26,870 bases of DNA from a virus (taxonomy: Duplodnaviria; Heunggongvirae; Uroviricota; Caudoviricetes), in IMG/VR virus record IMGVR_UViG_2869947659_000007, positions 1 to 26,870 of that record; one strand, written 5' to 3'. Shown here piece after piece: positions 1 through 6,000 of this stretch. The position numbers are program-made. Positions within the stretch are counted from its first letter, which is position 1, and each line of letters starts with the position of its first letter.

Positions 1-3000
1 TTACTGATAGTGTTTTATGTTCAGATAATGCCCGATGACCTTGTCATGCAGCTCCACCGATTTTGAGAACGACAGTGACTTCCGTCCCAGCCTTGCCAGA
101 TGTTGTCTCAGATTCAGATTATGTCGCTCAATGCGCTGAGTGTAACGCTTGCTGATAACGTGCAGCTTTCCCTTCAGGCGTGATTCATACAGCGGCCAGC
201 CATCCGTCATCCATACCACGACCTCAAAGGCCGACAGCAGGCTCAGAAGACGCTCCAGTGTGGCCAGAGTGCGTTCACCGAAGACGTGCGCCACAACCGT
301 CCTCCGTATCCTGTCATACGCGTAAAACAGCCAGCGCTGACGTGATTTAGCACCGACGTAGCCCCACTGTTCGTCCATTTCAGCGCAGACAATCACATCA
401 CTGCCCGGTTGTATGCGCGAGGTTACCGACTGCGGCCTGAGTTTTTTAAGTGACGTAAAACCGTGTTGAGGCCAACGCCCATAATGCGTGCACTGGCGCG
501 ACATCCGACGCCATTCATGGCCATATCAATGATTTTCTGGTGCGTACCGGGCTGAGAGGCGGTGTAAGTGAACTGTAGTTGCCATGTTTTACGGCAATGA
601 GAGCAGAGATAGCGCTGATGTCCGGCAGTGCTTTTGCCGTTACGCACCACGCCTTCAGTAGCGGAGCAGGAAGGACATCTGATGGAAATGGAAGCCACGC
701 AAGCACCTTAAAATCACCATCATACACTAAATCAGTAAGTTGGCAGCATTACCAGGAATTTAAAGCCCTTACCGGACGGAAACAGCACCTTAAACGCATA
801 CAACGCGTCATTGTCATAGGCATCACGCAGGGCGTTCTGGGCCTGATTCAGATAAAAATTACCCGACATGGAAATCTCAGACGACGCCCCCAGACCGTTG
901 ATGTTCTCCTGCTCTGTGGAGCAGAGCGTGGTCACATCAATATCCTGTTTCTGACCGGCGGTGAACTGGACTTCCTTGATGGTGCAGTCCAGGCGCAGAT
1001 ATTCCGCCTTATCCATAGTTTCAGCAGTCGCCGGGGCAGATGAAATCATCACCTGCGTCAGCTGTGAGCGTTCATACAAAGCAGACATTCTGCCTCCTGA
1101 TAATAAAAAACCCGCACGCGGCGGGGTATGGTTTTGTAGAAAAAAAGAAAAAGTCACACCGTGACCTGAAACTCCAGGGTTGCACGGTAACAGCGGTTTT
1201 CCGGAATATAGTCCTGCATTTCACTGACGGATCCCGGGGCCAGCAGCATTATGGCTTCACGGGCGTCCTGACGTATCTGACGCGCCTGCGTCACAGTCCC
1301 GGCATAAACGTCTATCTGCACCGACACTGAGGACTCCGCCTGCCCGCCCATCACGTCCGCTGACACCGATGAAATCAGGCTGAAAACCACCCACGGAAGC
1401 GCCACCGACGGCCTGCCATCCAGCAGGGGGGCCACATACGGGGACACCTGCCCGCCGGCAAGATGCGCCAGATGAGGATACAAATCCGCCTCCGTCATCG
1501 TCTCAGTACCTCATCAATGGCCCGGTTCATCCGCGCAATCGCCACCTGAGCTGCCTGTTCACTGCGCACATCAAACGCCGGGCGCACAAACGGGTGCGGT
1601 GGCATATTCACGGTCCCCATTTCCACAAACCGCCAGTAGAAAGCATTGCGCGGGTTATCCGCCTTCATGGTGTTATCGCTGTTACCGGTGTCCGGATTAA
1701 CACCACGGATATGGACACCGGATTCCATCCCGCCATCGCGGGAGCGCCGGGAAAGGATCACCACATTGCGGCGCAGTTTTCCCCTGCGTACCGGTGTCCG
1801 TGACACCACTTCTTCTTTCAGCACATTCGCACCCGCACGGGTTGCCTCACGCAGCACCCGGTTATTTTCCGCACCACTCAGAAGCTGCAAATCGCGGCTG
1901 ATGTCCTCCAGCCCCGAAAAATCCAGCAGGATTTCGATCATTTTTCCCCTCCCAGCCGACAGAGAATTTCCAGACGCCCGCCGGTCGCATCCGGCACGGG
2001 CAGCCCGACAACGTTCAGGATCCGGTCACGCCATGGACCACTCAGCACATGAAGTCGTGACGCTGCCGTGATTTCCCGACCGGACTGACCGCGCACCCAG
2101 ATGCGGATTTCCGCCTGCGCCATTTCCGCACCGGACTGCATCCGCTCCCGGCTGCTCCTGCCTCGGATATCCGCATGAATTTTCCCGCATGACACCCATT
2201 CTTCCGTCATTTCTCCGGCAGCGTTACGGGTTAACACCGGGTTCAGAACACTTATCATCTGTGTCAGACGACCTGCAGATATTGCCATTCCCCCTCCTCA
2301 TAACACCGTCGGACAACGCAAATCGTAAATCAGCACGGAAACAGAAAACGGCAGCTCCCCCTGAAGCAGTTCTTCCCGCTCCGCAAGATCCGGATTCCGG
2401 TACAGCATCCCGGTCAGTCGCATGGCAGCCCCCTTCATCCGGGTTAATGCCTCGCCCGGGATCAGTTCACCGTCCTCACGGAGCACTTTATCCCGGCTGC
2501 CCTGAATGTAGGCCAGCAGCACGGCGGTAGCCTGACGAACCTTGTCCATCAGCATGTCATCATCCGCGTCATGGTCGACACGCAGATGTGCCTTGATCTC
2601 TTCCAGTGTCAGTAATGCCGTCATTTTCCGCCTCCTGCATCCCGCCCACGTTTTGCAGCCAGGGTCCAGGCTGATGAATGAGCTTCTCTGGGTTTATCTT
2701 CGGTCATACTGTTGCAGTGCCACAGCGAGCCCCCCCACGTCACCGTATCGCCGGGGTGGTAGGTTTCACCGGCTCTGAACACACCGCGGTAGAGCATCAC
2801 CGGCAGGGAAAATGTTTTTTCCGTACGCTGGCCACTGCTCTGCCGGACCACCACAGAGAACAACCGCTCACCCGTCATGCTGACGTCAATATCCGCCACC
2901 CCGTCAACCAGGCATTCCCATCCCCGCATCCCGTGCGTTTTTTCATACGCCCGCCAGAGTCCGCCCTGGTGTGTGGCATACGTGCCCCGGGGAAAGGATT

Positions 3001-6000
3001 TTTGAACGTCAATGGCGGGGAGTATTTCCAGAGCCGTGGCATCACGCCCGTCCTGCGGAGCCGGCAGGGCACTCACCGCATCCAGAACCGCCTTCTGCAG
3101 AACATCCGGATCGTAGTCACGACCATCACGCGGAACAGGGATATGGCTTACAGCCTCCGTCACCATCTGTTCAAGCATCGGACGCACATCATCCGGGGTG
3201 AGACTTTTACCGGCAGGGATGCTTTCACCATATACGAACCGTTTCTTTCGGGCGTCATGGTGACCTCGGCTACACCCTGCGTATTAGTAGAGACCGTATT
3301 CTGGCTGATGATCATTTGCGAGGATGGCTCTGCACTGAATGTCACGGGTTGATGCGCAACCGGGTTGCCAAACTGGTCGTTAACGTGAGCTTTAACTGCT
3401 ACGTCTTGTGCGACCATTACCTGACCTTCCGGTATCTCCAGACTGGTAATCGTCGCAGAATTAACATCTGCACTGGCATTCAGTAATCGCGAGATGACTT
3501 CAGTAGGTTTATCTGCCAGAGAGGCTGAAACTGTTTTCAGTCCGACCTCGGTGCTTGTCACAAGAATTTCAGCGAAACCCCGATCATCCGTTTCAACGCT
3601 GGTGCTGCTTAGCGTGACGGAGGTTCCGCGGAAATTAACTTTTATGCCTTCTACTGGGTTGCCGTTAGCGTCAGTGACGCTTGCCGTCATGGTTGCGCCC
3701 TCGGTCGTGCTGACGACGAATGAGTATACAGAGGTTAAGGAGGCTAGTTTTGCGGTACCAGCATCGGCAATCAAAGTTGAACCGCCCCGGGAATCCTGGA
3801 GACTAAACTCCCTGAGAAAGAGGTAAACAGGATGACTAAAAATACTCGTTTTTCCCCCGAAGTCCGTCAGAGGGCGATTCGTATGGTTCTGGAAAGTCAG
3901 GGCGAATATGACTCACAGTGGGCGGCAATTTGTTCCATTGCCCCAAAGATTGGCTGTACACCGGAGACTCTGCGTGTCTGGGTACGCCAGCATGAGCGGG
4001 ATACCGGAGGCGGTGATGGCGGGCTCACCACCGCTGAACGTCAGCGTCTGAAAGAGCTGGAACGTGAAAATCGTGAACTGCGCCGCAGTAACGATATCCT
4101 TCGCCAGGCTTCCGCTTATTTTGCGAAGGCGGAGTTCGACCGCCAGTGATGCCACTGCTGGATAAGCTGCGTAAGCTGTACGGGGTCGGACCGGTATGCA
4201 GTGAACTACATATTGCCCCGTCAACGTATTACCACTGTCAGCAACAGCGACATCATCCTGATAAACGCAGTGCCCGTGCGCAGCGCGATGACTGGCTGAA
4301 GAAAGAGATACTGCGCGTATACGATGGGAATCATCAGGTATACGGTGTGCGTAAAGTCTGGCGTCAGTTGTTACGGGAAGGTATCAGAGTGGCCAGATGC
4401 ACTGTGGCACGTCTCATGGCGGTTATGGGACTTGCCGGTGTTCTCCGGGGTAAAAAGGTCCGTACGACCATCAGCCGGAAAACCGTTGCCGCAGGCGACC
4501 GCGTAAACCGTCAGTTCGTGGCAGAACGACCTGACCAGCTGTGGGTGGCTGATTTTACTTACGTCAGCACATGGCAGGGCTTCGTCTATGTGGCGTTCAT
4601 TATTGATGTGTTTGCCGGATACATCGTGGGGTGGCGGGTCTCATCGTCCATGGAAACGACATTCGTGCTGGATGCTCTGGAGCAGGCGTTATGGGCCCGT
4701 CGACCGTCCGGCACGGTCCATCACAGTGATAAAGGTTCTCAGTATGTATCGCTGGCCTACACACAGCGGCTTAAGGAAGCCGGATTACTGGCATCAACAG
4801 GAAGTACAGGCGACTCGTATGACAACGCGATGGCGGAGAGCATCAATGGTCTTTACAAAGCGGAGGTAATACACCGTAAGAGCTGGAAAAACCGTGCAGA
4901 AGTGGAACTGGCCACACTCACGTGGGTGGACTGGTATAATAATCGACGATTGCTGGAAAGGCTGGGCCACATCCCTCCGGCAGAAGCAGAAAAAGCTTAT
5001 TATGCTTCCATCGGAAACGATGATCTGGCAGCCTGAGTTCACAGATAAAACACTCTCCAGGAAACCCGGGACGGTTCACTTCAGCCTTGCCGTTGATATC
5101 AGTAATGGCGGAACCGCCTTGTCCGAGAGTAAAGCTTGCGCTCACATCTGCCGGTAGCGTGAATGTCACCGCCTCATTGGCTAACGGGTTGCCGTTTCCA
5201 TCAGTCACTGTTGCCTGCAGCCTGGTCATCCCGACGTTATTAGCGATAAAATTGTCCTCGGTAACGTTAAGATTAACCTGCGCAGTGAGCGTATCCGCAA
5301 TAAAGTTCACCACCAACTGCTCACTCTTACCGCCAGTCATCGATGCTGTAACAGTATGAGCGCCTGCTTTTGTACCTTTCAGCGTGACTTTCGCTTTGCC
5401 TTCAGCATCAGTAATCGCTTTACCGCCATCGCTCAGCGTGAAGTTCGCCTTCACATCTTCCGGCAGAGTAAATGTTACCTCAGTGTTGGCTATCGCATTG
5501 CCCTCTGTATCAGCGACTGTTGCTGTTAGTGTCGTGAGATCGTTATTGTCGGCAATCACCGGATCCTTCGAGGCTGCCAGCGTGATTTCAGCATTCGCGA
5601 CGTTCGGCACATAGGTCACTGTTTGTTGCATCGAATCGCCATTTTCGAGGGTTGCCGTCAATTGATAAACCCCGGCTTTTGTAGCGGTAAAGCTTGCGTA
5701 AAAATTGCCGTCGTGGTTGGTAGTATATATAGCGTTATTACTGGGGGTCACGCCTTCACTTGGTGAAACGCTGAGGGTTACCTCCTGCTGGGGGACACCG
5801 TTGCCGTAATTATCCTTCACCTCAATATACAGACTGGTTGTCTCGCCTGCGGAGACTGTATCAAAAAGTGCCTGTAGCAAGGTGAGATGTGCCGTAGACG
5901 CATCAGCGTTGACATTAATTGATGTGCTAAGCGTGGAGCTACCATTTTCCAGACTGGCCTCAACGGTATCCGGTCTCGCTCCTGATTCTATCGAGGAGCG

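Follow-up and report, generated by a model that had tools for sequence, protein, structure and literature searches.

The cryptic prophages of Escherichia coli K-12 (Rac, Qin, DLP12 and e14) and the islands of Shigella that have been eroded by insertion sequences (ISs) are partial lambdoid prophages: they are incapable of forming particles, are bounded by deletions and IS elements and are carried passively in the chromosome. In their head–tail region, the Shiga toxin 2c (Stx2c)-converting Enterobacteria phage 2851 (Pankowvirus pv2851), BP-4795, phages converting to Stx1a, Stx2a or Stx2c and the ST131 prophage by ompW have a common gene order: portal, Ad1 connector, head closure, gp10-like, terminator and a tail tube gene with an Ig domain. 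Here we report on a piece of such a region in a 26,870-nt stretch of DNA (IMG/VR record IMGVR_UViG_2869947659_000007, positions 1 to 26,870; hereafter the window), where it is located between an IS1 element (copy A) and a part of the adhesin gene yeeJ. Very probably, the fragment is a relic without function that derives from the late (virion) operon of a siphovirus, a lambdoid phage of the 2851/Stx-phage type, and is located in a Shigella boydii chromosome. Such a relic is already known in kind, is near-identical to sequenced phages and represents no new biology or mechanism.

Gene content of the phage fragment

All coordinates given below are window positions, and all genes of the fragment are on the minus strand. 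A nucleotide comparison with phage 2851 (NC_049943) places the phage homology between 752/754 and 3212, as one collinear alignment of 2,462 bp with 98.66% identity that extends from inside gp59 to inside gp54, and the order of the genes is that of phage 2851 from gp59 to gp54. A preliminary description of the window had proposed a head–tail joining module stranded between IS1 and the adhesin gene at 754–3187; the module is real (98.7% identical to and collinear with phage 2851) and its left end was placed correctly, but its right end was set about 25 nt short. The surviving phage DNA amounts to 2.46 kb and holds the 3' remnant of the portal gene, four full-length joining genes and the 5' part of the tube gene. 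There are six co-oriented open reading frames (ORFs), at 732–1088, 1154–1498, 1495–1941, 1938–2288, 2298–2624 and 2621–3187. Three pairs overlap by 4 nt at the stop and start codons (1495–1498, 1938–1941 and 2621–2624); the other two are separated by 9 nt (between 2288 and 2298) and 65 nt (between 1088 and 1154).

The first gene in the direction of transcription was missed as such in the preliminary description, which counted five genes without a portal: capsid, tape measure and distal tail genes are missing as stated there, but the sixth ORF (2621–3187, within phage DNA at 2621–3212) consists of the last 194 codons of a portal gene. It is assigned to phrog_2271 (E = 1.7e-121, profile positions 675–859) and represents codons 666–859 of an 859-codon gene annotated 'portal protein', with 191 out of 194 residues identical to residues 666–859 of phage 2851 gp59 and with codons 1–665 gone. 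Since Pfam places the Phage_portal domain of gp59 at residues 54–382, the remnant is outside the portal fold, in a C-terminal extension. We also observed that the C-terminal extension of the 859-aa 2851-type portal contains about four tandem units of 162 bp (54 aa) with 76–95% identity (locus L001, 11324–11929); the junction with yeeJ falls inside this repeat region (3075–3212), and the last unit alone survives. The extension has a weak, sub-threshold Pfam match to CBM_5_12.

The next four genes are complete and encode proteins that are 97–100% identical to their phage 2851 counterparts, all at full length. The head–tail connector/adaptor (Ad1, gp6-like; 2298–2624, 108 aa) matches PF05135 (Phage_connect_1; 32.6 bits, cut-off 21.2), TIGR01560 (47.1 bits, cut-off 24) and phrog_40 (1.4e-30), and 106 of its 108 residues are identical to those of phage 2851. 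The head closure protein (Hc1, SPP1 gp16-like; 1938–2288, 116 aa) matches PF05521 (Phage_HCP; 64.2 bits, cut-off 25), TIGR01563 (26.1 bits, cut-off 20.6) and phrog_25 (1.4e-31) and has no differences at all (116/116). The HK97 gp10-like neck/tail-completion protein (1495–1941, 148 aa; 145/148 identical) is recognized by PF04883 (38.8 bits, cut-off 21.4), TIGR01725 (80.3 bits, cut-off 30.8) and phrog_5 (Ne1/tail completion, 2.8e-34), and the tail terminator or tail completion protein (1154–1498, 114 aa; 112/114 identical) by PF11367 (Tail_completion_gp17; 32.3 bits, cut-off 24.5) and phrog_347 (4.2e-16).

The last gene encodes the gpV-like major tail tube protein, and only its 5' half is left (754–1088): it is cut by IS1 after codon 112 out of 238, as had been proposed. 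All 112 remaining residues are identical to residues 1–112 of the 238-aa tube protein of phage 2851, and codons 113–238 are gone, so that the Ig-like C-terminal domain has been lost through the truncation. The reading frame continues to a stop codon at 732 inside IS1, giving a 118-aa product with 112 phage residues and six IS1-derived ones. The remnant is assigned to phrog_158 (major tail, 2e-51); owing to the truncation, its Pfam score for Phage_TTP_11 (24.2 bits) falls short of the cut-off (28.4). The 65 nt that separate the terminator gene from the tube gene contain, at 1111–1125, a GC-rich hairpin (CCCGC-loop-GCGGG) that has T-runs on both strands (consensus terminator scan only).

The fragment ORFs are thus assigned to phage morphogenesis families throughout in Pfam, PHROGs and NCBIfam, and none of them received a non-phage family assignment in these databases; the connector, adaptor, gp10-like, terminator-like and gpV-like tube identities given in the preliminary description are all upheld as phage head–tail joining genes. 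A PADLOC search for defence families with all six ORFs matched 0 families. Hallmark genes of satellites (phage-inducible chromosomal islands or their capsid-forming variants), namely integrase, regulation, small terminase and capsid genes, are not found within 752–3212, and the fragment is bounded directly by IS1 and yeeJ.

Similar sequences are frequent among phages: 107 phage records have >90% identity to the fragment, most of them of Stx-converting phages, and 90 phage records cover at least 80% of the query. At the nucleotide level the fragment is 99.3% identical to the ST131 prophage. No other 2851-like DNA is present in the whole window, as a BLAST comparison with 20.6 kb of phage 2851 (tail fibre to lysis) matched only 752–3212. 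The fragment is not a complete or inducible prophage: terminase, capsid, complete portal, tape measure, distal tail, lysis, regulation and integrase genes and the att sites of this phage are missing.

The boundaries of the fragment

IS1 copy A occupies positions 1–753 on the minus strand (its first 15 nt are left of the window), with insA at 423–698 and insB at 1–504; it was identified by Pfam from DDE_Tnp_IS1 (1.3e-74) and InsA domains. Its ends read GGTAATGACTCC... and ...GGCAGCATTACC, and the terminus ...CATTACC is at 753, next to the tube gene. There is no 9-bp target duplication at copy A: the flanking 9-mers (GACGATTAC and AGGAATTTA) differ, so this is not a simple insertion. Left of copy A in the source genome there are pduQ (without ~150 nt), pduS, pduT, pduU, pduV and yeeX (locus L020, 11095–15200). 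With pduQ as the far flank and without a target duplication, it follows that IS1 took part in a later deletion or in IS1–IS1 recombination. In S. flexneri 6 genomes, IS1 abuts yeeX directly, so that lineage has undergone a further IS1-adjacent deletion.

The native gene order can be read from the pdu-positive E. coli D9: yeeJ, yeeL, shiA, amn, yeeN, asnW, yeeO, asnU, cbl, nac, asnV, ldtA, cobTSU, pocR, pduF, pduA to pduQ, pduS, pduT, pduU, pduV and yeeX. The fragment and IS1 stand in place of an interval that begins with the final 1.5 kb of yeeJ and reaches to about codon 50 in pduQ (approximately 45 kb in D9, which carries extra islands), and the flanks on both sides retain the native order and orientation.

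At the right end, a three-way comparison of the window, phage 2851 or related Shigella prophages (context A, see below) and K-12 yeeJ places the junction at 3211–3212. The join between yeeJ and portal is direct, with a microhomology of 2 bp (CG) and no IS; in BLAST, the phage match ends at 3212 and the yeeJ match at 3211. The adjoining segment (3211–3777, minus strand) is an internal piece of yeeJ, the gene for an inverse-autotransporter adhesin, with 99.8–100% identity to K-12 yeeJ and with Big_1/Invasin_D3 domains. The yeeJ frame enters the phage DNA out of frame and stops at 3160, and the window lacks the 1,545 nt with which yeeJ of K-12 ends. The gene is interrupted once more by an IS3-family element of ~1.3 kb on the plus strand (3778–5077; orfA 3832–4149 and orfB 4146–5036, with HTH_Tnp_1/rve domains), where 82 bp of yeeJ are lost; the same element is annotated 'IS3 family transposase' in Shigella plasmids at 99.2–99.8% identity. 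Two side observations concern yeeJ in other genomes. S. flexneri 6 FDAARGOS_714 (L004) also lacks the part of yeeJ at window positions 5081–7724, by a true deletion or by collapse of Big_1 repeats. In the draft contig AKMW01000052.1 (L006), the segment with the middle of yeeJ, the phage fragment, IS1 and yeeX is inverted, relative to the window, between two copies of the IS3-family element.

Occurrence and genomic contexts in Shigella

Two overlapping loci of a finished chromosome, CP026766.1, match the window at 100% identity; this chromosome is probably that of S. boydii 59-248, as its accession is adjacent to that of the plasmid of this strain (CP026767.1). Neither the yeeJ–portal nor the IS1–tube junction was found in any of 5,426 complete E. 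coli genomes. An ORF spanning the yeeJ–portal junction is found in at least 14 independent contigs (NCBI, ENA and Logan), including two other finished genomes, and 295 index blocks of the assembly collection contain exactly the same 118-aa tube product truncated by IS1. The many repeats of the region (IS1, IS3-family elements and the repetitive yeeJ) could make one suspect that phage and yeeJ were juxtaposed by an assembly error in one genome; the identity to a finished chromosome and the independent contigs refute this, and we consider such an error extremely unlikely.

Two contexts of the fragment can be distinguished. Context B is that of the source genome and of S. flexneri 6 strains: truncated yeeJ, truncated portal, the connector genes, truncated tube, IS1, in some cases the truncated pdu genes, and yeeX. 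Among its members, CP055124.1 and CP026811.1 are the S. flexneri serotype 6 strains FDAARGOS_714 and 64-5500 (PMC9455713). Short-read contigs of 3.0–3.4 kb extend from one IS across the junction to the next, which points to a single copy of the fragment in those context-B genomes.

Context A was observed at five loci (L002, L003, L005, L007 and L021; accessions CP001063.1, CP026762.1, CP026814.1, CP026797.1 and CP049281.1, the first of which we take to be S. boydii CDC 3083-94). Here the order is lysis, HNH, terS, terL, capsid, portal (frameshifted), connectors, truncated tube, IS1, yedA, vsr and dcm, and the late region is collinear with phage 2851 and the ST131 prophage at 96–98% identity. 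Over 752–3212, context A is 99.6–99.8% identical to the window at the nucleotide level, with the same IS1 insertion point and the same 118-aa tube product. The far flank of IS1, however, is the yedI–yedA intergenic region in context A and pduQ or yeeX in context B. The portal remnant has a 1-bp deletion in context A, and only six fixed differences separate the two contexts across the fragment. The shared insertion point together with these six changes indicates that a common ancestor had a prophage already carrying this IS1, and that the fragment is a more eroded or a relocated state of it.

We propose that IS1 would have been inserted at codon 112/113 of the tube gene, and that an IS1-associated deletion or IS1–IS1 recombination may then have changed the distal flank (to pduQ, yeeX or yedA, depending on the lineage). 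An illegitimate join of portal and yeeJ at the 2-bp microhomology would have made the right end. If the prophage was once located between yeeJ and the pdu genes, context B would need two deletions only. A reciprocal junction (portal 5' part to yeeJ 3' part), if present in these genomes, would read ...GTGAGGCTCCATTCG+TCCGCCGGCTGCGG....

An alternative is that IS1 and the 2.46 kb moved into yeeJ as a unit by one-ended transposition, using a surrogate IS1 end in the portal gene, and that an IS1-adjacent deletion then reached pduQ. The phage side of the junction can indeed be read as ...TTACC, the last five bases of the IS1 terminus, and related genomes have the cassette of IS1 and the DNA from truncated tube to truncated portal at two sites of the chromosome, with its orientation unchanged. 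Beyond these five bases, however, 12 out of 30 positions match the IS1 inverted repeat, and about 7% of the 30-mers of the portal region score as well or better, so the putative surrogate end is within background. Furthermore, the phage DNA of context A runs well past the junction point, a plain deletion end point explains the junction equally well, and the left flank is itself a product of deletion or recombination, so that a target duplication cannot be checked. We therefore regard one-ended transposition as improbable.

The serU prophage is a different phage

The window contains further phage genes near serU (12.3–26.5 kb), and E. coli FDAARGOS_944 carries, at serU, a nearly intact prophage closely related to them. 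Four segments of the window match it: serU with the 3' end of int (12200–12561, 97.3%), the fibre, gp48-like and truncated baseplate J genes (12562–14602, 99.8%), the genes from DUF968 to replication (15866–20192, 99.7%) and the exonuclease, DUF4224 and int genes (22999–26504, 99.5%). Besides a small terminase of the P27 type and an HK97-type head, the FDAARGOS_944 prophage encodes a contractile Mu-like tail, and it possesses connector, head closure, terminator, sheath and tube genes of its own.

One may ask whether the fragment at 752–3212 is a displaced piece of this serU prophage, its late genes having been split off by inversion or insertion of the yeeJ–mtfA–serU segment. The fragment is on the same strand as the early region and in the right order relative to it (cro to DUF968 on the minus strand, 21487–15864, then truncated portal to truncated tube, 3212–754), and lambdoid prophages with DUF977, hokD and DUF968 early genes can carry a 2851-like late region (e.g. 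the ST131 prophage). But FDAARGOS_944 joins that very early region (99.5–99.8%) to a P27-type terminase, an HK97-type head and a contractile tail, and its connector proteins are unrelated to those of the fragment: when five fragment proteins were compared by blastp with its connector, head closure, terminator and tube proteins, the best match had 14 residues (E = 0.003). The ST131 prophage, in turn, is located by ompW and not at serU, and its early region is only 90–92% identical to that of the window. The junction between the truncated DUF968 gene, IS600 and the truncated baseplate J gene also argues against this origin: many Shigella genomes have it (CP000036.1 and that of S. flexneri 6 strain 64-5500 among them), which means that early region and myovirus tail already belonged to a single prophage. 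An origin of the fragment from the serU prophage is largely refuted by the unrelated connector genes of the FDAARGOS_944 prophage, and we consider it very unlikely.

Judged from these sequence matches, the myovirus-type tail remnant (12562–14602) and the lambdoid early and int region (15866–26504) are one P27/SfV-like serU prophage with an IS600-associated internal deletion. The head–tail module is from a second, unrelated phage, and the window holds two prophages, not three. The preliminary description was right in separating the module from the serU-side tail remnant (a siphovirus-type tube versus a myovirus-type baseplate), given the dissimilar connector genes of the FDAARGOS_944 relative. 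Its count of a third phage fragment was right about a separate phage but too high by one, since the serU tail remnant and early region belong together.

The second IS1 element of the window (copy B, 22231–22998) is inside the serU prophage, between a cI-like gene and the exonuclease gene, where it replaces about 1.6 kb (ydfA, ydfB, ydfC, dicB, a DUF1482 gene and the initial 40 nt of the exonuclease gene). A target duplication is absent from copy B as well (flanks TCGATCTTG and CAAAAAATG). The preliminary description had proposed to check whether the flanks of copies A and B are contiguous in a related intact prophage; they are contiguous in no related phage. Nor do the two copies delimit an IS1 composite transposon, as there is no target duplication and the core genes mtfA, asnT and serU are located between them.

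Other features of the serU prophage were observed in passing. A copy of IS600 (14603–15865) connects what is left of the DUF968 and baseplate J genes, and RusA, Q, lysis, terminase, head and most tail genes are gone. The integrase gene is split: its 3' end (~200 nt) is next to serU (12337–12561), and the rest is found 14 kb away at 25662–26504, inverted and abutting another IS600 (from 26505). Compared with FDAARGOS_944 and S. flexneri 6 the prophage is rearranged, with fibre genes instead of int beside serU, and the ipaH-containing end of its relatives is missing. The early region still contains a toxin gene of the hok/gef type (70 aa, PF01848; window ~17000–17400; locus L008, 7146–7358). Rightward of the window there are IS600, zinT, msrQP, hiuH, hprRS, IS1 and a truncated yedS.

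Could the remaining genes be functional?

Most likely, the module does nothing. It is without a late promoter, the Q antiterminator, terminase, capsid, portal fold, tape measure and distal tail and would therefore be inert; no promoter-like site was found on the coding strand between 600 and 5200 (consensus matching only), and read-through from yeeJ would be blocked by the IS3-family element, which is located between the fragment and the yeeJ promoter. The four complete genes are presumably intact because the decay is recent, not because they have been selected. At most, it offers incoming lambdoid phages a substrate for homologous recombination.

Several points weigh against an inert relic. 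Four genes in a row are intact and one of them encodes a protein 100% identical to its counterpart in a live phage, and selection would give the same picture; the divergence (few single-nucleotide polymorphisms) is too small to measure selection; and the promoter scan was a consensus match only. In addition, the yeeJ–portal junction is of the deletion type only if the prophage was once located between yeeJ and the pdu genes, and is of the duplication or circle type relative to context A (truncated tube, IS1, yedA).

The four genes could accordingly be thought of as kept because they are useful, either as a domesticated module or as a rescue or recombination reservoir for superinfecting lambdoid phages (including Stx phages) or for capsid-forming satellites. 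Their full length and their 97–100% identity to a sequenced Stx2c phage would fit this, as would the persistence of the module in two genomic contexts across several Shigella lineages, and the 107 phage records with >90% identity make recombination with incoming phages physically possible. The copies themselves speak against it: in three of them (L004, L006 and L019, of the S. flexneri serotype 6 type and including two named serotype 6 strains), a C>T change at window position 2261 introduces a stop (Q10stop) in the head closure gene, which is called there as a 106-aa gene, and the context A genome L007 has further single-base deletions. Moreover, both the tube and the portal gene have been destroyed, the scan revealed no promoter-like sequence, the fragment lacks the native late promoter and Q, no defence family was matched, and there are too few substitutions to detect selection. 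Usefulness of this kind is quite unlikely.

Still less probable, by a small measure, is a specific form of this idea, in which several Shigella lineages would have retained the intact genes for their use, either as a reservoir for recombination or marker rescue or as a source of trans-acting neck proteins, for superinfecting 2851-like phages (including Stx-converting ones) or for connector-less satellites. If it were true, a 'dead' fragment would have an influence, in Shigella, on the host range of phages or on Stx phage yield. As an inert relic, the fragment has little significance beyond bookkeeping. It offers a clear and datable case of Shigella eroding prophages and surface-adhesin genes (yeeJ), with IS1 activity and illegitimate recombination as the causes. 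The yeeJ–portal junction and the tube gene cut by IS1 can be used as lineage markers: both are absent from the 5,426 complete E. coli genomes, and they occur in genomes of S. boydii and of the S. flexneri serotype 6 type. In addition, the number of prophages in the window is corrected to two.

Comparison with known prophages

The positions of known relatives do not explain that of the fragment. The ST131 prophage adjoins ompW. Stx2c prophages are placed in sbcB (PMC8309913, PMC3519850). In the source genome, sbcB is a few kilobases away and is called at 474 aa, apparently full length.

Compared with phage 2851 (~57 kb), the fragment retains 2.46 kb only. The P27/SfV-like prophage at serU, which carries ipaH in its relatives, has likewise suffered erosion, by both IS1 and IS600; gp6-like, head-closure and terminator genes belonging to the same broad protein families were once part of it, and in the window it retains only its fibre/baseplate, early and int parts. 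Relative to the cryptic prophages of K-12 (Rac, Qin, DLP12 and e14) and the IS-eroded islands of Shigella, the fragment is much smaller, consists of morphogenesis genes only, has lost both att sites and is fused to a pseudogene of a host adhesin.

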